The notes beneath the pieces are model-generated. The model saw only the letters and a program-made list of their open reading frames with translations. It was not told the origin of the DNA and did no database searches. Position numbers and translations under genes: made by a program. A stretch of 64,000 bases of DNA from an uncultured virus (IMG/VR IMGVR_UViG_3300031857_009768) (taxonomy: Duplodnaviria; Heunggongvirae; Uroviricota; Caudoviricetes), in IMG/VR virus record IMGVR_UViG_3300031857_009768; one strand, given 5' to 3'. This document shows positions 7,018 to 51,971 of this stretch, in pieces; the stretch's first letter is position 1; every line of letters starts with the position of its first letter.

Positions 7018-7025
7018 TATTTATG
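7018..7025 (-). promoter_or_regulatory. Late promoter variant CATAAATA
   Basis: One mismatch to TATAAATA at a gene junction. Confidence 0.5.
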
Positions 7026-8388
7026 TTTTCTGTATATCGCTAGACAATTCGGGGTCTTTCTGAAACTTATCCGATGCCTGTTCTTGTTCTTGTTTTTTGC
7101 CCTTTGCGGCATCTCTAACAATCTGAGCCTTGCGTGATAGAGTTCTTGCTGCGGCGCTTGGATCGTCAGTGTTTTCACTCACGGACTTCCAACCACCACC
7201 CATTTCTTTGTATTTCTTCGCAGCCCAACCGTTAGCATATGCTGAAGGATATACATCAAACTTAGACTTTGCTTGTGCTTTAGCCTGCGCCCACTTCTCA
7301 GGTGAAGTTGGCACATTCTTCTCTTCAAGTTGTTCAACCTCTTCCTTAACGTGACCATACTTCTTTTTATACCAGTCAGGCATACCACTCTTTTGACGGA
7401 AGTATCTTACTGTCGCAGAATCATTTGCTTGGTCACGATATTTGTTTTCTGCTGTTGTATTGTGACTCTTCATTGCTTCTGCTGCTTTGTGAGCATCTTT
7501 GGCAATATATTCCAATTCAGCATTTGTCTTCTTGTGGTACTCATGACCTTCTAGTGGATGGCGCTGTGATGGGCGACCTTCAGAAAGTTCAACTTCTTCT
7601 TTGTTGTATTTCTTTTTCAAATACTTGTCAACCTTGCGTTCGTATTCACCTTTTGGTTTCTTAGAAACAGGAGTACCATGTGGTGAAGGAACATATCGTT
7701 TAACTTCTTCGTTCAATTCACCACGCAGATAGTTTGCTGCTGTAGAAATATAATCTTCAGCAAGTGTAATCTTTGATTGAACCCATTCTGGTAGATTTGT
7801 ATTCTCTTCCATCAAGTCCATCATGTCTTGTGCGTTGAACATTAGTGAACGAATTTGTGACATCGCCATATCACCTTCATAATCATACTCACGGGCATCT
7901 TTTGCTTCTTTAATTGATGTAACAATCGTAGAAGACTTATATGGTTTTTTAACTGGTCCAGACACAAATCGTCCTTTCTTTTCTAATTGTTCTTCAATCT
8001 CTGTTTCTTCAGACACTCTTGATGCCTTCATGATGCCACGAATCAACGGTGCTTTGAGTTGCTTGTGTCTTGGAACAGCAATGTGTTCTTTTGACTTTGG
8101 ATGCCCATATACATCATGACCACCACCTGTGCGTTTCAGTGTCCAACCTGATTTACGAAGATGAGCATGAACATCACGTGTCTTCATGCTCGACTCTGGC
8201 ATCTCATCAAGTTGTTCAACCTCTTCTACTTTATATTTCTTTTTGATTTCAGATTGTTTTGCAAGTCTTTCTTTGTCATCAGAAATACCGTAAGAATGAC
8301 CCAACTCTTTGTAATAGTCGGGATGTGGAAGTCCCGACTTCTTACGCAGAGCCATTTGTCGTTGATGTAATTTATCGGCGACTGACAT
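7021..8388 (-). CDS. Modular putative internal head protein containing a HicA-like domain
   Basis: HicA-like segment MKTRDVHAHLRKSGWTLKRTGGGHDVYGHP...IAVPRHKQLKAPLIRGIMK; repeated EEVEQLDE/EEVELSE/EEVEQLEE linkers. Confidence 0.7.
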   Translation of the reverse strand: MSVADKLHQRQMALRKKSGLPHPDYYKELGHSYGISDDKERLAKQSEIKKKYKVEEVEQLDEMPESSMKTRDVHAHLRKSGWTLKRTGGGHDVYGHPKSKEHIAVPRHKQLKAPLIRGIMKASRVSEETEIEEQLEKKGRFVSGPVKKPYKSSTIVTSIKEAKDAREYDYEGDMAMSQIRSLMFNAQDMMDLMEENTNLPEWVQSKITLAEDYISTAANYLRGELNEEVKRYVPSPHGTPVSKKPKGEYERKVDKYLKKKYNKEEVELSEGRPSQRHPLEGHEYHKKTNAELEYIAKDAHKAAEAMKSHNTTAENKYRDQANDSATVRYFRQKSGMPDWYKKKYGHVKEEVEQLEEKNVPTSPEKWAQAKAQAKSKFDVYPSAYANGWAAKKYKEMGGGWKSVSENTDDPSAAARTLSRKAQIVRDAAKGKKQEQEQASDKFQKDPELSSDIQKT

Positions 8389-14469: not shown

Positions 14470-15180
14470 TTAGTAGATTTCGGTGGCTCCTGTGCTGGCC
14501 ATAACACCCTGGCAGTGTATTTTATCAAGTTCTACAAGACGATCTGGTTCAATGTTAAAGAAATGAGCATGTTCGGTGTCAATACCAGCATCTTGAATCA
14601 CACCAATGTTTCTTCTACAGACAATTGAGTAATCATCAATCAGACTCGGACAGAATGAGAATAAACGAGTAATCAACAAGTCGGTAAATGTCTCAGCAAC
14701 TTCACCAGCAAGCCAAGTCGGCATTCTTTTCTTGAACACGTACTTACCAAAGTAATCGTGTTCTGCTACATCAAACTCATCATGAAGTATAGTTCTTGCT
14801 GAAAACTTGTATATCCTACGAACAGAATACATTAGCTTCATCAACTCTGGTGACTGCTTCATCAGCATCATCATTTTCAGCATCAATAGATTTTCTGCTT
14901 CACTCTTGCGACCAGTAGACGCAAACTGAGCAATGTCTTTGTCACCAGAAAAGTCAGCAATCAAATTGACCCATTGACTCATGCTGTCATACTTTTCCCT
15001 TTCTACTTTTTCTGGTGAACCGTCAGCTAGAATAACAACTGCGTCTGGACATTTTTCTCTGAGTGAAATGAGTCCTTCGATTGTTTGTTCTAATCTTTGT
15101 TGACGATTGAGTACACCCATGTTTGGATTGAGTGCTGATGTTACAATGAATAACTGAAGTGATGGAATTATTGGTGCCAT
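14470..15180 (-). CDS. Hypothetical protein, possibly glycosyltransferase-like
   Basis: GT-A-like N-terminal pattern (LFIVTSAL...RLEQT...VILADGS); last gene of the sugar cluster. Confidence 0.4.
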   Translation of the reverse strand: MAPIIPSLQLFIVTSALNPNMGVLNRQQRLEQTIEGLISLREKCPDAVVILADGSPEKVEREKYDSMSQWVNLIADFSGDKDIAQFASTGRKSEAENLLMLKMMMLMKQSPELMKLMYSVRRIYKFSARTILHDEFDVAEHDYFGKYVFKKRMPTWLAGEVAETFTDLLITRLFSFCPSLIDDYSIVCRRNIGVIQDAGIDTEHAHFFNIEPDRLVELDKIHCQGVMASTGATEIY

Positions 15181-15845
15181 TCTACATCCGAAAATAGTTT
15201 GATTGTTTTGTAAGTTGCTTTTGATTTAATGACATGAACAATCGTGTCACTTACTTCTTTTGGTTCTAAAAACTTCTTTCTGGCTGGGTGATCTTTTTGC
15301 ATAGGTGTTTGTATACCACCAGGATGAATGCTTGTGACACGAATCTCATTCATCTGTGTGTGTAATTCTGCACCCAATGCACCAGCAAATGCCGTGATCG
15401 CATGTTTAGATGCTGAGTAAACTGCTTCCCATTCCATCTCCGCAAGACCAGCAACAGAATTGATAAAGAAAATATCGCTGCCTTTGTTCATCAATCTAAG
15501 TGCTTCTTTGGTCACATACATTGTACCTTTGACATTCAAATCAATAATTCTATCTATTGAATCAAATGAAAACTCATCTTTAAACAATCCCCACTGATAT
15601 ACACCAGCATTGTTGACAAGCACATCAATGTATGTGCCAATTGTTTTAAATGCCTCTTCAACTTGTTTTGACTTTGTTATGTCGCATTCAACCCATTCAA
15701 ATGTATCGGGATATGAATACAAGTCCATAGGTGGTTGTGAACGTGATAGACCATAAACAAAATAGCCCTCATCAATTAATCTACCTGCAATATCATAACC
15801 TAGACCATAACTACAACCTGTCACCACAGCCACTTTACGCATCAT
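15168..15845 (-). CDS. Classical short-chain dehydrogenase/reductase
   Basis: VVTGCSYGLG, NNAG, catalytic YSASK, IHPG. Confidence 0.92.
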   Translation of the reverse strand: MMRKVAVVTGCSYGLGYDIAGRLIDEGYFVYGLSRSQPPMDLYSYPDTFEWVECDITKSKQVEEAFKTIGTYIDVLVNNAGVYQWGLFKDEFSFDSIDRIIDLNVKGTMYVTKEALRLMNKGSDIFFINSVAGLAEMEWEAVYSASKHAITAFAGALGAELHTQMNEIRVTSIHPGGIQTPMQKDHPARKKFLEPKEVSDTIVHVIKSKATYKTIKLFSDVEWHQ

Positions 15846-16978
15846 ATCTCCTCAAAAACATCAATCGCCAATTTCATTTCATCTTCAGTAACATCATTTA
15901 CAATCTTGTAGTTACCAATTGAAATAGGCAATGGTGCATACTGATTGCCATTACGATGCTTCGTCGCATCACGCAGACTCTCTAGCAACAACTTCATATT
16001 TGTAAAGTCTTTGTGAAATGTTTTTAGTTTCAATCTCTTCGCAACATCAAAGATTCGTTTGAGTTGAACGGTGTCAATGTAGCCACGAATAAATGAAATA
16101 CATGAACTATACAAACAATCTAATGCTACTGCTTCACCATGTAACAATTCTGGTATGTTGGCCATTTCAATCACAGGACTGAATGTGTGACCAAAATCTA
16201 CGCAACGATCTAATCGTTTTTCCCATAGATTGGGTCCTAGTTCAGCAATCATGTCTGTAATCGCAAGATTGATTACACGAACTGGCACAGCACCATACTG
16301 AAACTTCTCATCAATCAATATCTCTGCGTTCTCTTCTAGCAGATGAAATAGTTCAGGTGATTTGATGACAGCAAGTTTGAATATCTCTGCGATACCATTG
16401 ATAATCTCTCGTTCACTCTGTGTGCGAATAAACTTCTTGTCGATGTATGTCGCCAATGGTGGATAGTATGCGCCAATACGATTGCGTCTACCTAGATGAT
16501 TGACACCAACTTTTGAGCCGACGGATGCGTCAACAATTGCCAAAAGTGTTGTGGGGATTTTGATATATGGAATTCCACGACGGTATATGCTGCAAGCAAA
16601 GCCAACAATGTCAAGCAGGACACCACCGCCAATTGCGATAATCGGTTCACGGCGTAACACTCCATTCTGTTCAAAAAAATCTAAAATACGATCTACATTC
16701 TTCCAATTCTTGTTTTCTTCTTTACAGTCTACACAAAGTATTTTACAACTCATCTTGACTGCACCAAAATATGCTGCGATACTATCTTTGTATAGATCAT
16801 GTACCTCAGAATCAATCACGATAATTCTACGCTCACTGTTCGTGATGTTTACAATATCTTGATTACTTGGACTGAAGATGTCAGCAGAGTATGTAAGTTT
16901 GAATTCTACTGGTAGTTCTGTTTTAACTGACCAAGTTCGTTTGAACTTGTCATAATCCATCATAAAGTCTAAACTCAT
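15842..16978 (-). CDS. Sedoheptulose-7-phosphate cyclase, 2-epi-5-epi-valiolone synthase (EEVS) type
   Basis: DHQS fold (GGGVLLD, PTTLLAIVDASVG, HGEAV) with cyclase motifs NRIGAYYPP and MIAELGPNLWEKRLDRCVDFGHTFSP. Confidence 0.82.
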   Translation of the reverse strand: MSLDFMMDYDKFKRTWSVKTELPVEFKLTYSADIFSPSNQDIVNITNSERRIIVIDSEVHDLYKDSIAAYFGAVKMSCKILCVDCKEENKNWKNVDRILDFFEQNGVLRREPIIAIGGGVLLDIVGFACSIYRRGIPYIKIPTTLLAIVDASVGSKVGVNHLGRRNRIGAYYPPLATYIDKKFIRTQSEREIINGIAEIFKLAVIKSPELFHLLEENAEILIDEKFQYGAVPVRVINLAITDMIAELGPNLWEKRLDRCVDFGHTFSPVIEMANIPELLHGEAVALDCLYSSCISFIRGYIDTVQLKRIFDVAKRLKLKTFHKDFTNMKLLLESLRDATKHRNGNQYAPLPISIGNYKIVNDVTEDEMKLAIDVFEEI

Positions 16979-17928
16979 TTCATCGCCTTACTCATCAATT
17001 TACACGCATGAACATAAAAATATTTTGCTTTATCAGTATCACCAGCAAGCAGTTTAAACGGAAGCATACGAATAAACTGTGATGCTTCTAGTATATCTAT
17101 GAGTTTCATTTTGTCTTCTGGCAACTCAGAGATGAAGTGTTTGTTGAATGTATCAAAGTGATCCGTACCACCATGAGGAATAGACAAGTCAATTCCTTTC
17201 ACATGAACATCATGATCGTTGATGAAACCATAATGACTACGTGAACATTGTAGAACTTGAGCATAATCAAGATACTTGGTGTTCCACATACTTTCATCAT
17301 ACAAGTCAATGAAGACAACACGATCTTCATCAAATGAATACATGATATTTTCTAGTGTTGGATTACCATGTATGTTACACTCATCGTCATTCTCTAATTC
17401 TGAAAAGTATTCTTTAAGACCATATAAGTATCCACCAATTCCTGTTACGACTTCATCATTAAAATTATATGTTCCACGATAAAAGAAATCTTCAAACTCT
17501 TTTATTTTGATAGCATCTTCAATCTTCTGTTGTATCTCTTCAACAAAATAAAGTTTTGGTGCACCAGCAATGGGTTCTTTTCTGATTGAGTGAAGTGTAT
17601 TCAGTCCTTTCCAGACCGCTTGACTCATTCTGAAGATTTGGTCTTCACTTAAAGTATCTTTGCTTAGAATGCTTTTGATGTCACGAAAGCCCTCAAGATA
17701 TTCCAAATCAAACCATGCCTCAACACTAGTAGAATCTACATTCACAACTTTAGGAAACAAACCAGGATATAGTGTATTGTATTCTTGTAATTTCTTTAAC
17801 TGAGAGTACCAACGCATGAAACCATATTCACGATTTTCTATGCGTGAAATTTCTTTACGAACAATTTTCTCATCTGGTAGCCAATAAGTTTTACTTAATG
17901 AACCACCTTTCAATGGTATAGTTGTCAT
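16975..17928 (-). CDS. APH/choline-kinase-fold phosphotransferase
   Basis: KGGSLS loop, VRK, Brenner-like IHGNPTLENI, FID. Confidence 0.7.
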   Translation of the reverse strand: MTTIPLKGGSLSKTYWLPDEKIVRKEISRIENREYGFMRWYSQLKKLQEYNTLYPGLFPKVVNVDSTSVEAWFDLEYLEGFRDIKSILSKDTLSEDQIFRMSQAVWKGLNTLHSIRKEPIAGAPKLYFVEEIQQKIEDAIKIKEFEDFFYRGTYNFNDEVVTGIGGYLYGLKEYFSELENDDECNIHGNPTLENIMYSFDEDRVVFIDLYDESMWNTKYLDYAQVLQCSRSHYGFINDHDVHVKGIDLSIPHGGTDHFDTFNKHFISELPEDKMKLIDILEASQFIRMLPFKLLAGDTDKAKYFYVHACKLMSKAMK

Positions 17929-18656
17929 TTTGCACCTAGTGTTTGCCTTGCTATCTCAATACCGTATTCTTGTGGACTGCCTAGCACAATCGTTTCTTGA
18001 TTACTACCAAGAGGATTCATAAACACTTGCTTATTAGATTGTATCATACTTTGTATCACATCAGCAATATACAATTCGCCATCTTTTTCGGCTAAATTGT
18101 TGTAATATTCCAAATACATATTACCGGTAAGAAATCCATAAAAGCCTGATGATGCGTATGGAGAGATTTGTTTCTTCTCTACAATTTCAATTACCGTATT
18201 TTCAAACGCACGAACATAAGAATATTTTGGTGAATTGCCGACAAACACATCAATATAGGCATCATGCTTTGCGGTCAAGTCATCGGCAATAAAATCTATG
18301 CGCCGACCAGTAATGATTGTGTCAGCATTGTGTACGAATGTTGGTAAGTTCTTGTTGTTCAGTTGTTCAATACCAATTGCTGCTGTATGTGCTTGACCTT
18401 TTGTGTCACCAATGTATAGAATATTGCTTTCATTCCAACCTAGTGGTTGAATTGCTTCAACAAGTTGATCTTTGAAATAAATGTCTCTCTTATTGGCCAC
18501 AAGAATCAGTTGTGTAACCCAACCAAGATTCTTCAAAATATCATATATGATTGTCTTGTCATTCCATGGCAAAAGATATTTTGGTATATCAAAGCCAACA
18601 TCATGAAATCGGGTGTTGTATCCCGCCATACAGATTATGAGATTCATTTGAGCCAT
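17925..18656 (-). CDS. Sugar-phosphate nucleotidyltransferase
   Basis: CMAGYNTRF...PKYLL, TKGQA, NADT, VEKK, ELYIA, LGSP. Confidence 0.85.
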   Translation of the reverse strand: MAQMNLIICMAGYNTRFHDVGFDIPKYLLPWNDKTIIYDILKNLGWVTQLILVANKRDIYFKDQLVEAIQPLGWNESNILYIGDTKGQAHTAAIGIEQLNNKNLPTFVHNADTIITGRRIDFIADDLTAKHDAYIDVFVGNSPKYSYVRAFENTVIEIVEKKQISPYASSGFYGFLTGNMYLEYYNNLAEKDGELYIADVIQSMIQSNKQVFMNPLGSNQETIVLGSPQEYGIEIARQTLGAK

Positions 18657-19357
18657 TCTTCCATATCTTCACGCAACAATGAGTGCCATGTACCATTATA
18701 TGGTCCTGGTAGGAAAGGATGATTCACATCACAGTATACAAGATTCTCACCAACAAGATTATTTCTTTTCCAGTTAGCACTCATGAAATCTTCCATCATG
18801 TACTGTACACCTGAATTGTAAAACTCATCAATATGATTATACGCATCAGCATACTTGTCCATGTTTTCTGATGAAGAGAAAGCAAACTGATCATTACCAA
18901 AATCACGATTTGGTGTCATGCGACAATTTGGTATGTGTAGTTTACTGTTATCTAATTCTTCAAATGGTATACGAGTATTGATAGCAAAGTCAAATCGTGA
19001 ACGAATGACCCAATCAAACTTCATTTCAAAGTATTTTTCATATTCATACTTTGTTCGCATACACTCTTTGATAGCATATAACTGAGCATACGTTGACATA
19101 CGACCATCTTTCACTTTCCAGTTTGGTGATGGTGGTGGTGTGTTTGTGTATTTTGATAAATCAACTGTGGGATTTGGCGATGTAATAAAACTATGAGCAT
19201 TGTATTTCGTGGAGATTTCTCTCATCTGTTCAGCGGACATTTCCCATGAATGTAGAAATACAGTTACATCATTACCTTTGATAATGTTTTTGTAATGATA
19301 TTCGTAGCCTTGTTCCCACATTCTTGGTTGGCCAGAAATACAGAGTGCTATTCTCAT
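18644..19357 (-). CDS. Putative glycosyltransferase-like protein
   Basis: IALCISGQPR, VFLHSW, FDWVIRSRFD, NDQFAF pattern recalled from glycan loci. Confidence 0.55.
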   Translation of the reverse strand: MRIALCISGQPRMWEQGYEYHYKNIIKGNDVTVFLHSWEMSAEQMREISTKYNAHSFITSPNPTVDLSKYTNTPPPSPNWKVKDGRMSTYAQLYAIKECMRTKYEYEKYFEMKFDWVIRSRFDFAINTRIPFEELDNSKLHIPNCRMTPNRDFGNDQFAFSSSENMDKYADAYNHIDEFYNSGVQYMMEDFMSANWKRNNLVGENLVYCDVNHPFLPGPYNGTWHSLLREDMEEWLK

Positions 19358-20046
19358 AGTTCACGCCCCACATTTGCTTTGTTGTCTGTAATGCCAAATG
19401 GTTTTAGTTGTTCTTTCTCCATCACAACCATGCTGTTATAAAATGCTACAGAGTATAGATTGTGATACACATCTAATGCTTCTTGTGAAATTGGTGAACC
19501 TTGAAAGTGTTGCTGATTGACAATATCAGTAGCCCGTTTACAATGCTCTGTGAATGTGCCAGCACCACGAAATACACCACCCCATGGTTGTGGCCAATAA
19601 CTTGTATGGGTATCTTCACAAATGTATACACCACCTTCTTTGATGTGTGGAAAAACTTTGTTGAGTGTAGTAATTTGATGATTCATTACATGTGAGCCAT
19701 CATCAATAACGATATCAAATTTGTTTTGTGTTTTGAGAAACTCTGACCAAAACTCAGGATCACTTTGATCGCCCATCACAATTTTTACATCACCAGTATA
19801 TTCGTACTTCAAACATTCTTCATTGATGTCTATGGCAACGACTGATGTATCTGGTCCAAAGTATTTTAGCCACATTTCAATCGAACCACCACCAAGCACA
19901 CCAATTTCAAGTATGCGTGGTGCTTTACCCACAAACTTCTTTAGATGTCTTTCATAAACATCAAAGTAGCCTGACCATTTAGTGGATGGTTTTTCTAATT
20001 CCCAAAATAGTTCTTTGATTCTATTTGTCGTCATATTTTGCCTCAA
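19354..20046 (-). CDS. Class I SAM O-methyltransferase (MycE-like sugar methyltransferase)
   Basis: LEIGVLGGGS, GDQSD, DIVIDDGSH, GGVYICED. Confidence 0.88.
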   Translation of the reverse strand: MRQNMTTNRIKELFWELEKPSTKWSGYFDVYERHLKKFVGKAPRILEIGVLGGGSIEMWLKYFGPDTSVVAIDINEECLKYEYTGDVKIVMGDQSDPEFWSEFLKTQNKFDIVIDDGSHVMNHQITTLNKVFPHIKEGGVYICEDTHTSYWPQPWGGVFRGAGTFTEHCKRATDIVNQQHFQGSPISQEALDVYHNLYSVAFYNSMVVMEKEQLKPFGITDNKANVGREL

Positions 20047-20863
20047 TCACTTTCTTCCATTCTGGCACACGATCATACTGATGTACAATAGTATACTCTA
20101 TTCCTGTTGAAGTTACAACCTTGTCACCCTCTAATTTCGGTGATGGTTCTAATAGATGTGGTCTGAATTGATCAATCTTACTTGGATCGGCAGTAGTACC
20201 TAATTGACACGCCCAACCGTATTCTGATTCGGTATACATTGACGAATCAATATAGGGATGTCTTGAAACCATTACATTGAATACTGCTTGGTCAACAATT
20301 GGTATTGGTCTATTGATACAGTTTAGGAACAACTGTAAAGTTAAATCTCTCATCGCATAACCACGACCAGCAAGAACACCGACATTGAAGATCGTGTTGT
20401 TCTTGAAGTCATCATAGATACCTTGACCATAACACTGTGTTAGATTCTCACGACCCCATGGCTCATCTTTATATTTCATGCTTTCGGAAGAAAATACCAA
20501 ATCTTCTTGTTTAGATAGATTTTCTTCTAACCATTCAACAGGATTTTTTTGAAAGATAACATCTCTTACGTCAGTAGTAATCACGTAACGATAATCATTG
20601 CTTTTGAGTAATTTGTAAATGTGAACAAAACGCTCAACATGAACCATAAGATTCGATTGATACGTCAAATTACCTTCAGTGTCTTGATTGAATGCTATGA
20701 TTGAGAAGCCTGCGTCAGATACCTTTTGTACAGTATCTTTGTCGCAGTTCATGAGAATCAGAACTTTGTCACCTTCAAAGCCTGATGCGTTGATTGAATT
20801 AATCCAATACTTTATTTTTGACCAATCGTAGTTGGTCGAACAACCCACTATCAAATCCTTCAT
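20021..20863 (-). CDS. Putative GT-A fold glycosyltransferase
   Basis: TDVRDVIFQKNP, NVGVLAG, DQAVFN, IVHQYDR. Confidence 0.65.
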   Translation of the reverse strand: MKDLIVGCSTNYDWSKIKYWINSINASGFEGDKVLILMNCDKDTVQKVSDAGFSIIAFNQDTEGNLTYQSNLMVHVERFVHIYKLLKSNDYRYVITTDVRDVIFQKNPVEWLEENLSKQEDLVFSSESMKYKDEPWGRENLTQCYGQGIYDDFKNNTIFNVGVLAGRGYAMRDLTLQLFLNCINRPIPIVDQAVFNVMVSRHPYIDSSMYTESEYGWACQLGTTADPSKIDQFRPHLLEPSPKLEGDKVVTSTGIEYTIVHQYDRVPEWKKVIEAKYDDK

Positions 20864-20878
20864 AATATCTCCAATAAT

Positions 20879-21064
20879 TTATTTTATGTCAGTTTCTTTC
20901 CAGCTTCCTGTGTATTTTTTGTATTGTTGTTGACTTTGACCAGGAGTGTCATCGAGATATTTAGCAGTGAGTTCTGGTCTTCCCCACTCACCACCGCCAG
21001 CCTTAGACACAAACTCTTGTCTACTGTCTTTGTTTGCCTTCAGATAATCTTTGAATGTTTTCAT
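20879..21064 (-). CDS. Small protein with capsid-targeting-like N-terminus
   Basis: Start [13 protein letters not shown] overlap with erpA stop; [10 protein letters not shown]...DTPGQ. Confidence 0.6.
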
Positions 21065-21384
21065 ATCGTGAATGAAGAACCGCAACCGCACGTTGCGGTC
21101 ACGTTTGGATTTTTGATTGTAAATGAAGCACCCATCAAATCTTCTTTATAATCAATCACAGCTTCATTCATATATTGCATACTCATACTATCTATGACAA
21201 CTCCAACACCATCTCTTTCAAATGTAAAGTCATCGTCTGCTACTGGCAATTCTTCTAGTGTAAATCCATACTGAAAGCCAGAACAACCACCACCCTGAAC
21301 GAACACTCTCAACTTCAAGTCGGGGTCTTCTTCAGCAATAATTGTTTTGATTTTCTTTACAGCAGAATCAGATATAGTAACCAT
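21061..21384 (-). CDS. erpA: A-type Fe-S cluster carrier (ErpA/IscA family)
   Basis: [17 protein letters not shown] and [14 protein letters not shown]. Confidence 0.9.
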
Positions 21385-32786: not shown

Positions 32787-33602
32787 CTATTCTAGAATGA
32801 TAAGCGGAACTCTAGCTACGTTTACTTTGTTAGCATGTAAAAAGAATGGAAGAAATCTTTCGCCAAGAAATCCTGGATAACGCCATGGTAATGGCTCTGA
32901 TGTTGTCGGTTGTGTTGGATACACTTTACTTGTATTCTGCCACACATATTCTAAAAGTTCGAATAACTCAGATGCGTACTTTCTGAACAGTTGTTTACGC
33001 ATGACATAGCTTGTTTCAAAACTTGCGCCACGTTCATCCCACCAACTCATACTTTCTCTGTAATCAGGCAACAACTTTTCAATGCCTTCTAAAAACAAAT
33101 TCAGATACTCTGGTGGCTGTGACTGTAGATACTGCTCACGCACAGAATACGGCATTGGTGTGATTGGGTTCGTGATAGCGTCATGTGTCTCAAGCAACTT
33201 GAGTGCTGCTGCTTTTTGCTCATCCGATGATAAGTAATTGGCACTCTCCTGTGTTGGAGACATTGCTGCTTTCAACACATTTGTTCCTAGATCACATTTG
33301 AAATCAAGATAGCGACGATATGTTGTACAACCAATGAAGTCAGCACGACCATTTTTCCACAAGTAGTATTCTGATGCTTGTTGACCTAAAGCACGAAGAA
33401 ACTCATCTTCAGAACATACTCCATAGTAGTGCTGATATTCATAAACACTTTTGTGATGTGAAGTGTTGATCCAATTGCCGGGTCCTGGTGGATGCCAACC
33501 ATATGGCGCATGAGAGCCAGCATATGCGGCTTTCAGCCAAGACGATTCGTGATTGAACGGAAAGTCTTTGTGAAAGTGACTAACCATCAACAGATCAGTC
33601 AT
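32787..33602 (-). CDS. DUF4422-like glycosyltransferase
   Basis: SEYYLWKN, FIGCTTYRRY, RYPGFLGERF; start MTDLL at 33602. Confidence 0.65.
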   Translation of the reverse strand: MTDLLMVSHFHKDFPFNHESSWLKAAYAGSHAPYGWHPPGPGNWINTSHHKSVYEYQHYYGVCSEDEFLRALGQQASEYYLWKNGRADFIGCTTYRRYLDFKCDLGTNVLKAAMSPTQESANYLSSDEQKAAALKLLETHDAITNPITPMPYSVREQYLQSQPPEYLNLFLEGIEKLLPDYRESMSWWDERGASFETSYVMRKQLFRKYASELFELLEYVWQNTSKVYPTQPTTSEPLPWRYPGFLGERFLPFFLHANKVNVARVPLIILE

Positions 33603-33759
33603 CTTTTGTCTCTTCTTTTTTCTTTTTCTTGAATTCGATGCGTGGAGCAATGATTGCTTGAATCATCTCACGCTTGTAGTCTTCTTTGTGTTCTTTTGTC
33701 ATTTTCGACAGAAGAACTTTAAGAGACTTGTCCATTTTAAAGTTTGAATTAGATTTCAT
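33595..33759 (-). CDS. 54-aa basic hypothetical protein
   Basis: Not in ORF track: MKSNSNFKMDKSLKVLLSKM...KKKKKEETKDD; fills the gap with coupled start and stop. Confidence 0.6.
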   Translation of the reverse strand: MKSNSNFKMDKSLKVLLSKMTKEHKEDYKREMIQAIIAPRIEFKKKKKEETKDD

Positions 33760-37746: not shown

Positions 37747-38016
37747 TTATTTCCTCGTCAAATCATGGTTATGTAAAGCCATTATAGCATAGTGTACAAC
37801 TTTCATCAAGTCATCACGATTGTAACCATTCTTTTTACCATATCGTTGTGCGTATTTGATGATGTTACCAATAAAGAATCCTTCACCGTGCCCACAGTCA
37901 ATGATGAATTCGGAAGTTTGAAATTTGTTTAGTGAGTAGTGTTGACCGTATGTCTTATCGACGTATTCTTTTACATCTTTAAGAATACGGTCTTCACTGT
38001 ACTTGTAGTCGATCAC
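37747..38016 (-). CDS. Conserved phage protein (DUF3310-like)
   Basis: TYGQHY, GFFIGNIIKYAQRYGKK..DLMKVVHY. Confidence 0.7.
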   Translation of the reverse strand: MIDYKYSEDRILKDVKEYVDKTYGQHYSLNKFQTSEFIIDCGHGEGFFIGNIIKYAQRYGKKNGYNRDDLMKVVHYAIMALHNHDLTRK

Positions 38017-38828
38017 AATCTACCGGTATACTGAGCAACAGCGGGCATGTTGCCAGTAAATGCGTATGTACCAATATGCTGCGTCTTCATCCATGGACAC
38101 AACCAAACTTGTCCACCAATCTTACGCCACATCTGACAGAACATATAATCTTCTGATAGATAACGTTCAGAACCACCACCGACACACGAATCAACAGTAT
38201 CAATCACTGTGTCGAAGTAAGCATGAATGTAACGTGAGCCATCGAAGTGTGCTTGTCCAACATGATCAGGTTTGTATTTGATTTGAGGATAAGCATCTTT
38301 CATTTTATCAAATACATCACGTTTGATCATCATATGACCCGTACCAATTTCCATTACTTCTAATGGATCAGATACTTGAAATTGTTGTGTGCCTTTTACT
38401 ACATTAAACACATATTCACCAACAAGATTTTCAAGTTCTCTTGGATTTAAATCGGGATGGCGACGAGCAGTTTCAGCAATGTTGTTCCAATTGATTGACT
38501 TCTTGGGATAGGGACCACCAATAACATCTTTATCAAGTGCCATTAGTGCTACGATATCATTCGGATCAAAGTGAATGTCCGAATCGATAAACATCATGTG
38601 TGTAAAATCTGTGCGTAGAAACTCATCTACCAAATAATTTCTTGCTCTTGTGATGAGTGATTCGTTGAAGAGAAAAGAAAACTTTGTTTCAATGCCATAA
38701 CGAATCATAACGGTTTGAAGATCAAGGCACGACTTCATGTATAGACCGTGATTCATTCCACCATACATCGGTGTGGCAATGAACAGTTTGTTTTTTCTTA
38801 GTTGTTCAATATCGACTTGTATTTGCAT
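38013..38828 (-). CDS. GT-A fold glycosyltransferase-like protein
   Basis: IATPMYGG, ESLITRARN, FIDSDI (DxD), GTGHM, LSEDY. Confidence 0.75.
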   Translation of the reverse strand: MQIQVDIEQLRKNKLFIATPMYGGMNHGLYMKSCLDLQTVMIRYGIETKFSFLFNESLITRARNYLVDEFLRTDFTHMMFIDSDIHFDPNDIVALMALDKDVIGGPYPKKSINWNNIAETARRHPDLNPRELENLVGEYVFNVVKGTQQFQVSDPLEVMEIGTGHMMIKRDVFDKMKDAYPQIKYKPDHVGQAHFDGSRYIHAYFDTVIDTVDSCVGGGSERYLSEDYMFCQMWRKIGGQVWLCPWMKTQHIGTYAFTGNMPAVAQYTGRL

Positions 38829-42962: not shown

Positions 42963-42991
42963 ATGATATCATAGGGGAAAAACTTTGTCAA
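42963..42991 (-). promoter_or_regulatory. Second tandem sigma70 promoter
   Basis: TTGACA-17 bp-TATCAT with extended -10 TG. Confidence 0.65.
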
Positions 42992-43884
42992 GACTTGAAA
43001 TTTGTTGTCAATTTCATACCATACTCATTCTTACCCTGTGGCAATGTGATGTCTTTTTTGTAACGAAGTTCGTTCTTCTTGAATGGCGAATAGTCAACAT
43101 AGTGATGCCATCTCTTGTATCGCCAAACCATTCTTGCTACATCAGGATGCATTCTTACCAACATTTCTGATTTGTTTCTTGTACCTTCGGCATTCACACC
43201 ATCTACCCAATGATTCTTTTCGATACCCTCTTTGTGATAGAACTCTTCGGTGTTACCACCCTTGACAGTTTGTGTTGCTGCTTTACCTTGTAGAAAAGCA
43301 TTAAACTGAATTGTACAATCACCATCTTTCAGCACACGTAGGCAGATATCGGTATCTTCATTGTAACGACCACGCCAACGATGTTTGCAATTGTTGTCTA
43401 TCAACAAAGTAGAATAGATTCGTGTGTTCTTTACATACGGTGGATAACTCTGATTTGGTGCAATGAAGAATCGATATTGAAAACCAGAAATTGGTACATT
43501 CTCAAAACGATCAACGAAGTCTTCTGCTGCTTTAAAGATGACACCAGATTCTACACGGATTCGTTGATTCTTATGTAGTCTGTAGAAGTCTGAAATGTTA
43601 TCATCAAGCACCCAATGTTTTTTTGCACCGATAGTGATAGAGTGATCCCAAGCAAAGTTTCTTGCTCGACCAGGGCCATCACCATGATTACTGAAGGGTG
43701 CTACAATCAGTGTAACATAATCACGAATCTTAAAATTGTCTAATGCTTTTTCGTAGGCTTCTTTATCTTGTGGTTCAATGACTATGTAATGCGGCACTTT
43801 CATTCGAGCCAAAGATTTCGATGTGATCATCGAATCAGCACGACCTTTAGAAACGATATAAACTGGATGTGTCGGATTGCTCAT
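42988..43884 (-). CDS. TET-associated (TAGT/GREB1-like) glycosyltransferase
   Basis: VYIVSKGR, ARNFAWD, WVLDDNI, WRGRYNEDTD, KGGN, HHYVDY. Confidence 0.75.
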   Translation of the reverse strand: MSNPTHPVYIVSKGRADSMITSKSLARMKVPHYIVIEPQDKEAYEKALDNFKIRDYVTLIVAPFSNHGDGPGRARNFAWDHSITIGAKKHWVLDDNISDFYRLHKNQRIRVESGVIFKAAEDFVDRFENVPISGFQYRFFIAPNQSYPPYVKNTRIYSTLLIDNNCKHRWRGRYNEDTDICLRVLKDGDCTIQFNAFLQGKAATQTVKGGNTEEFYHKEGIEKNHWVDGVNAEGTRNKSEMLVRMHPDVARMVWRYKRWHHYVDYSPFKKNELRYKKDITLPQGKNEYGMKLTTNFKS

Positions 43885-44641
43885 TTCTTTTCCATATCAA
43901 AGGTTTGTTGTTCCATATTCCACATTTGATGTTTTCATACTGTCTTCTTTTCAAATGCTGATTAAACATCTTGCTTATTTTTTCTTGACTTACTATTGTA
44001 CCATAAACATCATAGTTTATAAAGTGACCCATTCCCCATGTATTGAATGAGTTTGCTACAATCATGTGTTTTGGATTTAACGTGTCAATAATGCTATCTA
44101 CATGTTCAATCGGATTATAAATGTGTTCGAAGTATTCTGAAGCAAACAGTATATCAACCGATTCACCAACTTCAGTAATCGATTCTATCAGATTGAAACC
44201 CATTCTTTCTGCCATCACTTCACATAATTTCCATTGTTTAGTATCTCTTAGGTTTATGGCATAGATTTTTGCTTCAGGAAAAATTTGTTTCAGTAAACAT
44301 GTACTATAACTTATACCACAACCAATGTCAACAATAACTTTGGCATTTTTGAGTTCATCAAAGTGGGGTGATTTTATCACTCGTTTAATGTAGTCTCTGC
44401 TGTATTCCGCAAAGCAATTAAAAATATCTATGAAGTAGTAATCATGATTGTAGACATCATAAATGTTTCTGGTGCTTTGATGAGCCAAATCATCATACCA
44501 TTTTTCAGATAACTCAAGAAAAATCTTGTCGGTTTTTCTAATTGCTCTACATTCTTCAGCATCTATGTTAAACAGACTGCCATAGTCTTTTAGAAAATAC
44601 TCAAATAAAACGGAAGGCTTTTCTTTGAGAAAATCCATCAC
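43847..44641 (-). CDS. Class I SAM methyltransferase
   Basis: IVDIGCGISY, ASEYFEHI. Confidence 0.75.
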   Translation of the reverse strand: MMDFLKEKPSVLFEYFLKDYGSLFNIDAEECRAIRKTDKIFLELSEKWYDDLAHQSTRNIYDVYNHDYYFIDIFNCFAEYSRDYIKRVIKSPHFDELKNAKVIVDIGCGISYSTCLLKQIFPEAKIYAINLRDTKQWKLCEVMAERMGFNLIESITEVGESVDILFASEYFEHIYNPIEHVDSIIDTLNPKHMIVANSFNTWGMGHFINYDVYGTIVSQEKISKMFNQHLKRRQYENIKCGIWNNKPLIWKRNEQSDTSSLYRF

Positions 44642-44991
44642 TCTTCAATCCATCTCTTTAGCATATTCTCATCACGCTCAAGTTTTGGATGCCAAATAGA
44701 TTTCGTTTTCATTGTCAAGTTTTGCTCAATGAGTTTGGCAAATGCTTCATAATCTTCTTGATTGCGGAAATGAACATAGATTGTTTTGTAAGTTTTCTTG
44801 TCGTTCTGTTCGAACTCAGGCATACCTACCCAATGTTTTTTCCATTCAACATTGTTTACGTCAACACCACCCTGTTCATCTTCTTCATCTTCACCAAAAA
44901 AACGATTGAGTGTTGGAGGTTGATATTCATCAGTCAACAACTCCATACAGTTTTCGTATGTACTAGATTCTTTGGCTTGTTTGGTTTCCAT
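44638..44991 (-). CDS. Small acidic hypothetical protein of the TAGT locus
   Basis: WVGMPEFEQ...VHFRNQEDYEAF...TKSIWHP; likely start METKQ. Confidence 0.6.
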   Translation of the reverse strand: METKQAKESSTYENCMELLTDEYQPPTLNRFFGEDEEDEQGGVDVNNVEWKKHWVGMPEFEQNDKKTYKTIYVHFRNQEDYEAFAKLIEQNLTMKTKSIWHPKLERDENMLKRWIEE

Positions 44992-45556
44992 TCTTGTGAC
45001 TCCTAATAATTTTCTTAACAATTTTGTTGGCTTTTTGCCTTGCCATTTTTAACGCAAGCGACTTCACATGACTAGTATATCTTATTCCATCAAGATGATC
45101 AAGTTCATGAAGAAAACACCGTGCAGATAAACCGTGAAGTTTTACTTGTTTCACTTCACCAAACTCATCGGTAAATTCTACTTCAATCCACGAAGGTCTT
45201 TCGACATTCAAAAACAAACCCGGATAAGATAGGCAACCCTCTTTGTCCTTAACCGCAGGACCTTGATCAATCACTTTAGGATTGACACACACAAGTTGGA
45301 AGTCATCCGTACCAATGACAAAGATTCTTTCGGCAACACCACATTGATTCGCTGACAAGCCCAAACCAGAATATAGTTTCATTGTCATCTTCAATCTTTT
45401 GGCTAGTGTGACTAATGCTGGAGCAGGAAAGCCACCTGCATATTCAGGTATCTTTTGACCAAGCATAAAGTAATCTTCACCAAAAATTCGTAAAGGATCA
45501 ATTCTCTCTATGGGTTGTATGCCAGCGGCGGTATCAATTGTTAGTATCTCACTCAT
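44963..45556 (-). CDS. def: Peptide deformylase
   Basis: GLGLSANQ, EGCLS, HELDH. Confidence 0.94.
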   Translation of the reverse strand: MSEILTIDTAAGIQPIERIDPLRIFGEDYFMLGQKIPEYAGGFPAPALVTLAKRLKMTMKLYSGLGLSANQCGVAERIFVIGTDDFQLVCVNPKVIDQGPAVKDKEGCLSYPGLFLNVERPSWIEVEFTDEFGEVKQVKLHGLSARCFLHELDHLDGIRYTSHVKSLALKMARQKANKIVKKIIRSHKNGNQTSQRI

Positions 45557-48336: not shown

Positions 48337-48876
48337 CTATTCTACATCATCATCTAAAAATTGTTCAAGACCTTCTGACTTCTTTTCCTTTTTCTTTTTC
48401 TTATTTTCCTCAAAGTTATAAATGAACTCTGAGATGTTGTCATATAACTCAAACTGTTTCATATTGCCGTTTTCATCTTCATACATCTCACCCTCATCAA
48501 GTAAACCAAACTGTTGTGTTGCTTTATATTTTACATACAGTTGCTTCTTCTCACGCATAATTCTACGCAGAAAAGCATAGTAAATTATCTGTGTGAAGTA
48601 AGCAAATGGATTCTTTGATTTGGCTGGATCAAAGTTACGGAAATACATCAGACAGTTTTCAACACCATCAGATATCATCTCATCACGATAAGTGTAAGAA
48701 ATAAAGTTTGGCTTACGTGATAAGTGTTCAGCAATCTTTAGAAAGCATTCACCAATATAATCTGGTATCTTTGGTTCTGGTTTATTTTCTTCTTTAGCAG
48801 CAGCACATTCTGTCCGATACTTGACAAGTGCCGCTAGAAAATCTGCGTTATTGACGTAGTGATTTGATGTTGCCAT
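48337..48876 (-). CDS. gp55: Late transcription sigma factor
   Basis: HYVNN, YIGECFLKIA, NPFAYFTQIIYYAFLRRI. Confidence 0.96.
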   Translation of the reverse strand: MATSNHYVNNADFLAALVKYRTECAAAKEENKPEPKIPDYIGECFLKIAEHLSRKPNFISYTYRDEMISDGVENCLMYFRNFDPAKSKNPFAYFTQIIYYAFLRRIMREKKQLYVKYKATQQFGLLDEGEMYEDENGNMKQFELYDNISEFIYNFEENKKKKKEKKSEGLEQFLDDDVE

Positions 48877-49808
48877 TATACATTACCGTAAATATTATTC
48901 TTCAAGTATGTATAACCCTTGATGAGTTCTTCTACACCATTATCTAGTGTGTAGTAAGGCATCCAACCAGTTGCTTCTAATTTTTCATTTGAAACAATGT
49001 AATTACGCTGATCTGGATCTTTCTTGATATCACCTTCTACAACTGTGAAAGTAGGAATATGCTTCTTGATAATGTCACAGAGTTCTAGTTTAGACACGTT
49101 TGCTGATGACAAGCCTACGTTGTAAATGTTGCCCTTCATTTCTTCAAACTGATACATCGCATGTAGGAATGCTTCACACACATCACGCACATGAATGTAG
49201 TTACGTTTGAAGTGTCCTTCAAAGATAATCACATAACCATCGTTGACAGCACGATAAACTAAATCATTTACTAGCAAGTCTGTACGCATACGTGGCGACA
49301 TACCAAACACAGTAGCCAGACGATAACTAATTGAGTTCTCACGTTCCATCAACCGTTGTTCTACAGCAACTTTATCAATAGCATATTTTGAGATTGGTCG
49401 TAATGGTGAATCTTCCGTACAGAAATTGTTTTCATCACCTGTGCCATATGCTGAATTGGTTGTGGGCATGATGATACGCTGTTCATTTGAAACAGCATTC
49501 AACATCCAAAACATCGCATCTTTGTTTGTTGTATCAGCACCGACAACATCTTTGTTACACAGTGGCGCACCAACAAGGGCAGCAAGAGGTATGATCACAT
49601 CTGCTTTTTTTAACAGAGGATTCATGTGATGTGGATTACGAATGTCACCATTCACAATTGTGAGATTTTTGTTTTCACAGAGATGATTTAGTCCAATTTG
49701 TTTATACATGAAGTTGTCAATGATAGTCACTTCATGACCCATCTGTAACAAATACTCTGTCAAAATACAGCCAATATAGCCAGCACCACCAGTCACTAAT
49801 ATATTCAT
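48876..49808 (-). CDS. NAD-dependent NDP-sugar epimerase/dehydratase/reductase (extended SDR)
   Basis: TGGAGYIG, YAIDK, RLATVFG, RNYIHVRD. Confidence 0.9.
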   Translation of the reverse strand: MNILVTGGAGYIGCILTEYLLQMGHEVTIIDNFMYKQIGLNHLCENKNLTIVNGDIRNPHHMNPLLKKADVIIPLAALVGAPLCNKDVVGADTTNKDAMFWMLNAVSNEQRIIMPTTNSAYGTGDENNFCTEDSPLRPISKYAIDKVAVEQRLMERENSISYRLATVFGMSPRMRTDLLVNDLVYRAVNDGYVIIFEGHFKRNYIHVRDVCEAFLHAMYQFEEMKGNIYNVGLSSANVSKLELCDIIKKHIPTFTVVEGDIKKDPDQRNYIVSNEKLEATGWMPYYTLDNGVEELIKGYTYLKNNIYGNV

Positions 49809-49809
49809 A

Positions 49810-50985: not shown

Positions 50986-50987
50986 GA

Positions 50988-51971
50988 TTACTCCATAATA
51001 ATTTTTGAACCTTCAAAATCAAACTTGAAGGGAACCCATACATTGATTTCTGGTATTGCTTGTTTTATTTTTTCATGTGCGTCTGGTGGAGCAAGAAACA
51101 TAAAGAATCCACCACCACCTGCACCCATCAACTTACCACCATATGCGCCAGCATCGATTGCTTTGTTGTATATTGTATCTATGTAATCAGTTGTAACACT
51201 ATCAGTAAGTTGGCGTTTACGATTCCATTGGTACTTCAACAATTCGCCTATCTCTTTTATTTTACCATGACTTTCAAAAATATGCAATGCTGTTTCGGTA
51301 ATTGTTGTGATTTCTTCAAGAAGTTTTTTAGACTTACCTTCTTTAATGGCATCAATTTGTTGTTTAGCATGAACGTTCGAGAATCTATCAATACCAGAAA
51401 AGCCTAACATGATGTGATCTTCTAAGTCAAGAACGTAATCGTCTTTGATTCTTAGATCACGAACATTCATATTTGCGCCAGAAAGTTCAATCACACGAAT
51501 GCCACCATACGCTGCCATAATTTGATCTTGAACACCGACAGATTCACCAATATAGTTTTGTTCTATATTGATAGCATCAAGTGCTAGATCATGAGGTGTA
51601 GGCAACTTGCCCTGTGCTGTAAGTATAGCATGAATCAGTCCAACAGTAAACGAAGAAGATGATCCAATACCAGAACGAGCAGGCAAATCACCATCGTGAG
51701 TAATAGAAATTCCATTAAGTATACCATAGTATTTTAAACACTCCCTTACAGAAGGATGATCTATATGTGAAATATCATTGACACTTTCTATTTTTGAGTA
51801 GATAACTCTGTTCACATAATCAAAATAGGGCGGCAATTTTTTTAAATTTATATAGCAGTAATGCGCCATTGCGGCAGAAATTACTTTACTCTGCCTTGAC
51901 TGAAACCAATCTGGATAATCTGTACCACCACCAAACAGAGAAAGACGATAAGGAGTTTTAGATATAATCAT
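50988..51971 (-). CDS. GHMP sugar kinase, HddA-like (heptose-7-phosphate kinase family)
   Basis: TPYRLSLFGGGTD, PARSGIGSSSS, GVQDQ, KLMGAGGGGF. Confidence 0.88.
   Translation of the reverse strand: MIISKTPYRLSLFGGGTDYPDWFQSRQSKVISAAMAHYCYINLKKLPPYFDYVNRVIYSKIESVNDISHIDHPSVRECLKYYGILNGISITHDGDLPARSGIGSSSSFTVGLIHAILTAQGKLPTPHDLALDAINIEQNYIGESVGVQDQIMAAYGGIRVIELSGANMNVRDLRIKDDYVLDLEDHIMLGFSGIDRFSNVHAKQQIDAIKEGKSKKLLEEITTITETALHIFESHGKIKEIGELLKYQWNRKRQLTDSVTTDYIDTIYNKAIDAGAYGGKLMGAGGGGFFMFLAPPDAHEKIKQAIPEINVWVPFKFDFEGSKIIME

Follow-up and report, generated by a model that had tools for sequence, protein, structure and literature searches.

A four-gene cassette around an EEVS-like cyclase that may make a nucleotide-activated C7-cyclitol, found in T4-like phages and in cellular surface-glycan loci

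The IMG/VR record IMGVR_UViG_3300031857_009768, a stretch of 64,000 nucleotides that was analysed as a whole (hereafter the window), comes from an uncultured T4-like myovirus of fresh water. It has PHROG matches to portal, scaffold, major head, gp43-type polymerase, gp41-type helicase, UvsX, clamp loader, gp46/47, primase, thymidylate synthase and CobS, and its major capsid protein is 64% identical to those of the cyanophages P-TIM40 and P-RSM6. Positions 14470-20863 are filled exactly by eight head-to-tail open reading frames (ORFs) on the minus strand, neighbours overlapping by 4-26 bases (g01 to g08, Table 1). A first-pass annotation, made from the sequence alone, had already described eight overlapping genes at this place, and both the ORF list and Pfam bear it out. 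Above the Pfam cut-offs are Methyltransf_24, NTP_transferase, DHQ_synthase together with DHQS_C, and adh_short, and just below them APH (22.5 versus 23.2 bits) and DUF7796 (23.2 versus 27 bits). Four of the genes, encoding a nucleotidyltransferase (g05), a kinase-like protein (g04), a sugar-phosphate cyclase resembling the synthase of 2-epi-5-epi-valiolone (EEVS; g03) and a ketoreductase of the short-chain dehydrogenase/reductase (SDR) type (g02), make up a core that is accompanied by transferase-like genes (g08, g06 and g01) and a methyltransferase gene (g07). We give a probability of roughly 60% to the reading that the cluster is a phage glycan island arranged around this mobile core, which would supply a nucleoside-diphosphate (NDP) C7-cyclitol for a glycoconjugate.

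The cluster is conserved well beyond the window. A cyclase-based scan of IMG/VR recovered 40 viral loci (L001-L040) with cyclases 72-100% identical to g03, across which all eight genes are intact, with median pairwise dN/dS values of 0.08-0.22, and gene order is the same wherever a contig reaches far enough. The arrangement is therefore not due to chance, and all eight genes are under purifying selection. A second viral scan, anchored on the kinase-like gene, yielded 78 loci, 46 of which were examined (L154-L199), the remainder being largely contigs of the cyclase scan. The cyclase gene lies immediately downstream of the kinase-like gene in 44 of these 46 loci, and the two others (L161 and L183) stop at a contig edge. 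The nucleotidyltransferase accompanies them in 41 loci and the SDR in 40, compared with 28 for g06, 26 for g08, 21 for g01 and 17 for the methyltransferase. Given these partner counts, the constant unit is nucleotidyltransferase-kinase-cyclase-reductase, with the transferase-like genes and the methyltransferase as accessories that vary from locus to locus. In other viral lineages the core is found beside GT2-like and GT29-like genes or beside a RuBisCO-like protein. The latter, in a more distant lineage, is a RuBisCO-large-subunit-like protein (L194:3722-4999, PF00016, 2.5e-43) encoded directly upstream of kinase, cyclase and SDR, with DUF6071 proteins and a radical SAM gene in the vicinity. 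Two further viral contigs (L175 and L176) have kinase, cyclase and SDR with no detectable nucleotidyltransferase homologue within 5 kb, and are flanked by a GDP-mannose-dehydratase-like gene and a UvdE endonuclease gene.

Among GenBank phages the cluster found no match by megablast. A tblastn search with the cyclase against 50,697 GenBank phage records returned 15 matches, all at 26-30% identity and none of them an EEVS-like cyclase, the annotated ones being AroB genes in bacterial-looking records; no homologue of g04 was found in the same records. Nineteen public sequencing runs from 17 studies, none recorded as RNA, contain at least half of the sampled words of the cluster, and contigs from three of them cover it at high identity with many synonymous-looking variants. 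The runs are labelled freshwater, aquatic or fungus metagenome, the last label accounting for 8 of the 19 strong holders. One metatranscriptome run contains 8% of the sampled words, in contigs of 151-248 bases with 0-1 mismatches that fall on the SDR, the cyclase, the methyltransferase/g08 junction and neighbouring genes.

The core also occurs in cells. One genome per prokaryotic species was scanned with an EEVS-specific peptide pattern, and the best 80 of 596 relatives were kept as cellular loci. A g04 homologue is encoded directly beside the cyclase in 16 of these 80, and 14 of the 16 also have a g05 homologue. These 16 cassettes carry the labels Gammaproteobacteria, Melainabacteria, Magnetovibrionaceae, Balneolaceae, Woesearchaeota, another archaeon, Myxococcales, Kofleriaceae, Haliangiales, Fibrobacteria, Desulfobulbaceae, Holophagaceae, Polynucleobacter and Prochlorococcus (two single-cell assemblies). 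The gammaproteobacterial one (L041) keeps the gene order of the phage, with 63% identity for the cyclase, 57% for the nucleotidyltransferase, 48% for the kinase-like protein and 42% for the SDR, whereas the actinobacterial loci among the best 80, with cyclases 41-45% identical, have neither a kinase nor a nucleotidyltransferase partner. Some of the cellular cassettes sit in O-antigen- or capsule-like loci. The core in Polynucleobacter (L097) is flanked on one side by ManC, GT2 and Wzz-like genes and on the other by an ABC-like ATPase, GT9, a GDP-mannose 4,6-dehydratase, a 3,5-epimerase, DegT and a methyltransferase. In Balneolaceae (L045) it is surrounded by genes for UDP-GlcNAc 2-epimerases, an ABC transporter, a formyltransferase, a g06-like protein, a fusion of a HAD domain with a nucleotidyltransferase, GT2 and GT1 enzymes and a CapD-like dehydratase, and in a Woesearchaeota metagenome-assembled genome it adjoins a Wzx-like flippase, GT2 genes and a PMT-like transferase. 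Since it is present in bacterial and archaeal surface-glycan loci, the cassette is not a phage invention. The co-conservation of the cyclase neighbours, which the first-pass annotation had left to a synteny survey, thus holds for the nucleotidyltransferase, kinase, cyclase and reductase in both phage and cellular loci. The two Prochlorococcus assemblies (L048 and L062) have a nucleotidyltransferase-kinase-cyclase-aldo/keto reductase cassette, the reductase being seen for L048, beside CMP-sugar synthetase-like and GT9-like genes; the L048 contig also encodes a flavoprotein of the succinate-dehydrogenase/aspartate-oxidase type, which suggests a cellular island rather than phage DNA.

The cyclase itself has the two-domain architecture of 3-dehydroquinate synthase (DHQS; DHQ_synthase PF01761, 5.1e-36; DHQS_C PF24621, 2e-19) and keeps the NAD- and metal-site residues. 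It scores 219.1 bits against the AroB model TIGR01357, below the equivalog cut-off of 305. Its best solved relative is the EEVS ValA (4p53, 290 bits over residues 15-372), ahead of desmethyl-4-deoxygadusol synthase (DDGS; 5tpr, 222), the best DHQS (3okf, 142) and 2-deoxy-scyllo-inosose synthase (DOIS; 2d2x, 95); 2-epi-valiolone synthase (EVS) is an enzyme without a solved structure. Both motifs on which the enzyme had first been called EEVS-like rather than AroB, NRIGAYYPP and ELGPNLWE..LDRCVDFGHTFSP, are present in the translation, and that call is upheld by the ValA score, the sub-cut-off AroB score and a ValA-type VDFGHTFSP..E segment. More broadly, g03 and ValA share NLWE..R.VDFGH.FSP..E and the histidine of KHR(D/N)G. 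Asp261 (in VDFGH) and His341 (in KHRNG) of g03 pair in the alignment with chain residues 287 and 366 of ValA, positions at which DDGS carries Ala and Thr; they correspond to Asp281 and His360 of ValA, which we take to be two sites separating EEVS from DDGS. Our comparison covered these two of the 14 sites of the sedoheptulose-7-phosphate cyclase fingerprint, the existence of which is stated in the accessible part of an eLife paper (PMC4426668). A regular expression for the motif matched 100 of the 150 best representatives at 50% identity, 98 of the 100 having Asp in xD[FYL]GH[ST]xxP. Eight residues of g03 (E198, H264, H280, K156, N166, K201, R134 and D150) are invariant across 29 diverse relatives and are presumably the metal-binding and catalytic residues of DHQS structures.

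Phylogeny places the phage cyclases with those of the cellular cassettes. A FastTree analysis of 229 rows groups the phage and all 16 cassette cyclases in one clade of 38 tips with a support of 92. In an IQ-TREE analysis of 88 rows, reduced by two thirds of the outside loci and four fifths of the outside representatives, SH-aLRT support is 100 for the phage clade, 99 for its sister group (L041, L042 and P0122), and 70 for the clade of all cassettes (35 tips), inside which no locus is known to be free of the cassette. Both trees were built from rows that include no characterised EEVS, EVS or DDGS. The cassette cyclases appear to form an EEVS-like subfamily with no characterised member. Among more distant relatives (20 proteins scanned), the cyclase is found fused to a ROK kinase, to an NTP_transferase domain or to a HAD phosphatase.

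The three partners of the cyclase in the core can be assigned with differing precision. The reductase is a clear SDR (adh_short, 2.3e-41) with TGxxxGxG, NNAG and YxxxK seen in its translation. An unrelated aldo/keto reductase takes its position in two cellular cassettes (L043 and L048), and this non-homologous replacement argues that plain ketoreduction is a required step. The nucleotidyltransferase matches PF00483 at 1.1e-10 and the NCBIfam models Arch_glmU and rmlA, all far under their cut-offs, and its best PDB match is 4evw, a nucleoside-diphosphate-sugar pyrophosphorylase (8.3e-19). The match of g04 to APH (PF01636, 1.1e-4) lies just under the cut-off, weak Choline_kinase matches (PF01633, 1e-5 to 9e-5) of its cellular homologues are also below theirs, and a single-sequence search of the PDB with g04 gave chance-level matches only. 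K7-G8-G9-S10, K25, N194 and D208 of g04 are invariant in 17 diverse homologues and, from the order of the motifs, would represent the Gly-rich loop, the conserved Lys and the Asn and Asp that bind metal.

Cyclases of the DHQS type eliminate the phosphate of their substrate. Read from the sequences, the chemistry, the order of its steps, the nucleotide used, the transfer and its target would run as follows. The four-gene core probably turns sedoheptulose 7-phosphate into a nucleotide-activated C7 ring pseudo-sugar. The cyclase would convert sedoheptulose 7-phosphate, with loss of the phosphate, into a C7 ketocyclitol of the 2-epi-5-epi-valiolone type, and the SDR would reduce the C-1 ketone to a pseudo-anomeric alcohol, a hydroxyl that exists only after ketoreduction because C-1 is a ketone until then. 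As the cyclase eliminates the phosphate, a kinase is needed before nucleotidylation, and the kinase-like protein would phosphorylate the pseudo-anomeric alcohol to give a cyclitol 1-phosphate, from which the RmlA-type nucleotidyltransferase would make the NDP-cyclitol. With the order of steps so arranged, the four constant genes would be the exact minimum for the route from sedoheptulose 7-phosphate through ketocyclitol, cyclitol and cyclitol 1-phosphate to NDP-cyclitol. The accessory genes, namely g08 and g01 with their GT-A-type folds, the DUF7796 gene g06 and the methyltransferase, would build or decorate a cyclitol-containing glycoconjugate, whose acceptor would most likely be a glycan of the host envelope and less likely the virion.

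Structure prediction guided the assignment of g08 and g01. The AlphaFold2 model of g08 has a pLDDT of 67.7, and nearly all of its top 50 Foldseek matches are GT-A transferases, those in the PDB including GpgS, BoGT6a, LARGE1, XXYLT1 and LgtC (TM about 0.45-0.5, E 3.6e-7 and below). The protein has a weak match to the glycosyltransferase family phrog_1579 (3.3e-6) and none in Pfam, and its T-D98-V-x-D101 is an invariant, DxD-like motif. The model of g01 is better (pLDDT 87), with GT6 and GT8 enzymes as top Foldseek matches (E about 4e-6), although its sequence has no Pfam or PHROG match and no DxD motif. Both proteins are thus predicted to fold like GT-A transferases. For g01 the Atlas also offers a WavE/DUF7796 hint (scores 0.91 and 0.88, shares 18-20%), which is a lead only. 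The nearest Atlas clusters of g06 are viral DUF7796 proteins, in line with its sub-cut-off match to PF25072 (3.8e-5), and a homologue 27% identical to it is encoded directly upstream of the Balneolaceae cassette. Profile searches with g08, g01 and g06 against PDB sequences gave 0 matches at E up to 10, and hhalign detected no relationship among the three (probabilities 0.1-0.2), a comparison of little weight given the shallow alignments (Neff 1.4-2.3). The methyltransferase g07 matches PF13578 with 28.7 bits (cut-off 26.3) and phrog_21658 (methyltransferase, 1.2e-22), with a further weak match to RMNT_CmcI; it has no homologue in the 80 cellular loci and is missing from four of the 40 viral ones (L026, L027, L030 and L040). 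In seven viral loci (L009, L011, L012, L013, L016, L029 and L032) g01 is only 55-64% identical to that of the window where the cyclase is 97-98% identical, and in L017 the kinase-like protein and the nucleotidyltransferase fall to 57% and 71% with the cyclase still at 96%. This mosaicism suggests recombination and, for the terminal transferase-like gene, allele classes that may be linked to specificity for an acceptor or a host.

Several observations weigh against the synthesis and transfer of an NDP-C7-cyclitol as outlined above. One concerns g04, whose catalytic loop reads H-G-N-x-T-L-E-N, with Asn at the position of the catalytic Asp, and not H-x-D-x-x-x-x-N as in APH and choline kinases. 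This HGN loop is kept in all 31 unique phage homologues and in 15 of the 16 cellular ones (the archaeal L055 has HGD), and the best PDB match of the family profile, a weak one (E 0.011), is to the HGN loop of the JAK2 JH2 pseudokinase. The protein is evidently functional, to judge from the purifying selection on its gene and from the invariance of the Gly-rich loop, the Lys and the two metal-binding residues, but its motifs suggest that it is perhaps not an ordinary kinase. As to the initial description of g04 as an APH-fold kinase, these conserved residues agree with it, the replacement of the catalytic Asp does not, and the APH match comes close to its cut-off from below. A similar ambiguity affects g01, whose model aligns with GT-A enzymes with a VIA-align Z of about 12 (12.5, rmsd 3.7, 198 residues) and equally well with IspD and CMP-sugar synthetases, so that the fold does not separate a glycosyltransferase from a nucleotidyltransferase. 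The cyclase product is also uncertain. A homologue from Streptomyces, in the sister group, reaches 433 bits against ValA, where the cassette of Polynucleobacter has 316 and the phage enzyme 290; the cassette cyclases lie apart from this actinobacterial clade nearest to ValA, and the stereochemistry of their product could accordingly be that of 2-epi-5-epi-valiolone, 2-epi-valiolone or another compound. Nor do g01, g07 and g08 have homologues in the cellular cassettes (80 cellular loci), and the metatranscriptome contigs, few and short, could be DNA carry-over and are not counted as expression.

The transfer step poses a further difficulty. Pseudoglycosyltransferases of the GT5- and GT20-like kind have GT-B folds, and GDP-valienol is an allylic donor. 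The known pseudoglycosyltransferases AcbS and VldE are classed as GT5- and GT20-like, the pseudo-anomeric bond is of the C-N type in all natural pseudo-oligosaccharides known, and AcbS requires an amine as acceptor, according to the accessible part of a published account (PMC9200736). The eight proteins of the cluster include no dehydratase or aminotransferase by Pfam, and the transferase candidates g08 and g01 are of the GT-A type; joining a saturated carbasugar to oxygen would have no chemical precedent. A bolder version of our proposal, in which g08, g01 or g06 would be a new pseudoglycosyltransferase that joins a saturated NDP-C7-cyclitol to oxygen or phosphate, creating a glycosidase-proof surface linkage in phage, bacteria and archaea, and in which g04 would be a cyclitol 1-kinase of unusual mechanism and the infected cell or the virion would be recoated, is rather doubtful. 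As to the claim of the first-pass annotation that the phage makes an NDP-carbasugar, the core is co-conserved and fits an NDP-C7-cyclitol, whereas the analogy with validamycin and acarbose turns out to be looser than claimed; the attachment to virion proteins, DNA or host glycans, the O-methylation and the glycosidase resistance that it also proposed are conjectural.

The problem of transfer would disappear if the NDP-cyclitol served as a donor of cyclitol phosphate, like CDP-glycerol, CDP-ribitol or CDP-inositol, for a phosphodiester-linked decoration, since attack at phosphorus avoids displacing the nucleotide from a saturated carbocycle. The equal likeness of g01 to IspD, ISPD and CMP-sugar synthetases and to GT-A enzymes would suit this donor role, as would the weak resemblance of g04 homologues to choline/ethanolamine kinases, whose LicA/LicC-type partners feed phosphodiester decorations. 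The dependence of known pseudoglycosyltransferases on amine acceptors (PMC9200736, in its accessible part) points the same way. However, no phosphotransferase family of the LicD, TagF or Stealth type is among the Pfam and PHROG matches of the cluster, and g08, with its DxD-like motif, finds GT-A glycosyltransferases as its top matches, so we regard a phosphodiester as an unlikely outcome. Slightly harder still to accept is that the cluster makes a soluble small molecule, whether an inhibitor of glycosidases or glycosyltransferases (an NDP-carbasugar acting as a dead-end donor analogue), a gadusol- or mycosporine-like sunscreen or a compatible solute. All characterised EEVS pathways do yield small molecules (validamycin, acarbose, kirkamide and gadusol; PMC12904256, accessible part), the combination of cyclase, methyltransferase and oxidoreductase recalls the EEVS and MT-Ox of gadusol (PMC4426668, accessible part), and an NDP-carbasugar that cannot be transferred would be expected to inhibit host transferases. 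Yet the methyltransferase is dispensable, as its absence from viral and cellular loci attests, and the cellular cassettes lie in polysaccharide loci with flippase, Wzz and glycosyltransferase genes, where inhibition of the cell's own glycan locus is improbable. A sunscreen pathway would need neither of the constant partners, the kinase-like protein and the nucleotidyltransferase, and Pfam finds no ATP-grasp or NRPS-like gene and no PF01596 match in the cluster; at D261 and H341 the cyclase has EEVS rather than DDGS residues.

Two other explanations fare much worse. The activated cyclitol might be a donor for the hypermodification of 5-hydroxymethylpyrimidines in DNA, a thought prompted by a TET-associated glycosyltransferase (TAGT; PF20691, 1.5e-45) and an adjacent methyltransferase-like gene at 42988-44641, a pair that hints at glycosylated 5-hydroxymethylpyrimidine DNA in the phage, and by a thymidylate-synthase-family gene at 399-1064. 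The TAGT gene is 22 kb from the cluster, though, and the cellular cassettes are located in surface-polysaccharide and not DNA-modification loci, which leaves a DNA role very improbable. Finally, some JGI records label close homologues of the cyclase '3-dehydroquinate synthase', and Pfam sees only DHQS superfamily domains in it, as if it were an ordinary AroB acting as an auxiliary shikimate gene. We rejected this reading, which is scarcely credible: the ValA score is about twice that of the best DHQS, the AroB model score is below its cut-off, the ..N.GHT.GH..E of DHQS-type enzymes is replaced by VDFGHTFSP..E as in ValA, and no other shikimate gene is nearby.

The surroundings of the cluster are in part also devoted to sugars. 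Directly downstream of the cluster, in every locus whose contig extends that far, is the large gene g00 (Table 1). The cluster seems to belong to a longer co-directional unit. A promoter scan found 41 sites where 39 are expected, there are 5 occurrences of the T4 late-promoter motif TATAAATA (expected number 3.2) with none directly upstream of the cluster, and a terminator scan found no convincing terminator flanking it. A second sugar cluster at 48876-54607 encodes an NDP-sugar epimerase/dehydratase, a DegT aminotransferase (29 kb from the cyclitol cluster), a split pair resembling thiamine-diphosphate-dependent transketolase/E1 enzymes, a B12-binding radical SAM enzyme and a GHMP kinase nearest to the D-glycero-D-manno-heptose 7-phosphate kinase HddA (5e-39, below cut-off). 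Heptose synthesis, like the proposed cyclitol route, starts from sedoheptulose 7-phosphate. Glycosyltransferase-like genes lie at 32787-33650 and 38013-38828 (DUF4422, 2.1e-19, and a weak Anp1-like match). To judge from these genes, the glycan toolkit of the phage is unusually rich. The window also encodes an IscA-like Fe-S assembly protein (21061-21384), a peptide deformylase (44963-45556) and a 455-aa protein with an internal HicA-toxin-like domain (7021-8388).

Table 1. Genes of the cluster and its downstream neighbour, with predicted assignments and positions in the window
Gene	Assignment	Position	Strand	Length	Basis
g08	GT-A-fold glycosyltransferase-like	20021..20863	-	280 aa	AlphaFold model; without Pfam match
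g07	Class I SAM-dependent methyltransferase, accessory	19354..20046	-	230 aa	PF13578 Methyltransf_24
g06	DUF7796 protein ('capsular polysaccharide biosynthesis protein' type), candidate transferase	18644..19357	-	237 aa	PF25072
g05	Sugar-1-phosphate nucleotidyltransferase, RmlA/GlmU-N-type	17925..18656	-	243 aa	PF00483
g04	Protein-kinase-like/APH-like protein	16975..17928	-	317 aa	PF01636, below cut-off
g03	EEVS-like sedoheptulose-7-phosphate cyclase, DHQS superfamily	15842..16978	-	378 aa	Pfam, PDB scores
g02	Classical SDR, presumed C-1 ketoreductase	15168..15845	-	225 aa	adh_short
g01	Nucleotide-diphospho-sugar-transferase-fold protein (GT-A or nucleotidyltransferase-like)	14470..15180	-	236 aa	AlphaFold2 model
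g00	Downstream neighbour: cytidylyltransferase-like, Zeta/AAA_33 P-loop kinase and C-terminal phage domain	11728..14427	-	899 aa	Pfam/PHROG

The C7-cyclitols known to date, such as validamycin, acarbose, kirkamide and gadusol, belong to secondary metabolism, and none is known as a component of glycans on cell surfaces or viruses. If a compact cassette passes between abundant T4-like phages of fresh water and the surface-polysaccharide loci of bacteria and archaea, this would point to an overlooked carbocyclic 'sugar' in environmental glycans and, if our interpretation is true, would matter for phage-host recognition, for the ability to withstand glycoside hydrolases and for glyco-engineering, NDP-carbasugars being sought-after probes and inhibitors of transferases. 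One carrier of the cassette, Polynucleobacter (L097), is cultured. A search of full-text literature, in which subscription journals are mostly uncovered, found no EEVS or cyclitol pathway in a phage and no EEVS in a surface-polysaccharide locus, in agreement with the earlier statement that no characterised phage pathway of this kind was known. In the accessible part of a 2026 review of cyclitols (PMC12904256) the words phage and virus are absent, and the sole viral mention met in the literature searched, in a source accessible in part, is a '3-dehydroquinate synthase' listed for a Micromonas virus.

The system is best seen as a variation on a pathway type already known, in a carrier and a setting where it was not expected. 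Among its closest known relatives is the GDP-valienol branch of acarbose and validamycin biosynthesis (AcbC/ValA, AcbM/ValC, AcbO, AcbL, AcbN, AcbU, AcbJ, AcbR/ValB and AcbS/VldE), in which AcbN is an SDR. As described for acarbose in the accessible part of PMC9200736, that branch likewise has an EEVS cyclase acting on sedoheptulose 7-phosphate, a ketoreduction, a C-1 phosphorylation, a PF00483-type nucleotidyltransferase giving an NDP-cyclitol, and a transferase. In contrast with it, the eight phage proteins include no ROK 7-kinase, epimerase (VOC), Zn-dependent alcohol dehydrogenase, dehydratase, HAD phosphatase or aminotransferase, the kinase is protein-kinase-like with an HGN loop, g08 and g01 are of the GT-A type instead of GT5- or GT20-like, and the cyclase belongs to a separate clade, fusions with ROK kinases being seen only in its more distant relatives. 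The setting differs as well, being a lytic-type phage or a surface-glycan locus rather than an actinomycete secondary-metabolite cluster. As to phages, the glycan islands of cultured cyanomyoviruses (Kyanoviridae, among them the Synechococcus phages B23, DSL-LC03, Bellamy and S-SM2) are comparable, with about 10 co-directional genes in a T4-like genome, a HAD-fused nucleotidyltransferase, a DUF7796 'capsular polysaccharide biosynthesis protein' and several glycosyltransferases, but their nucleotidyltransferase and DUF7796 proteins are only 24-29% identical to those of the window and they have no cyclase. With respect to activation, AmgK/MurU, NahK and LicA/LicC illustrate how an APH-fold kinase phosphorylates a free alcohol ahead of nucleotidylation, and the NDP-heptose pathway (GmhA, HddA, GmhB and HddC) starts, like the route proposed here, from sedoheptulose 7-phosphate. 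The cassette shares the kinase-then-nucleotidylation logic of the AmgK/MurU-type pairs and differs from them in its predicted carbocyclic substrate and in a kinase-like protein that dispenses with the catalytic Asp.

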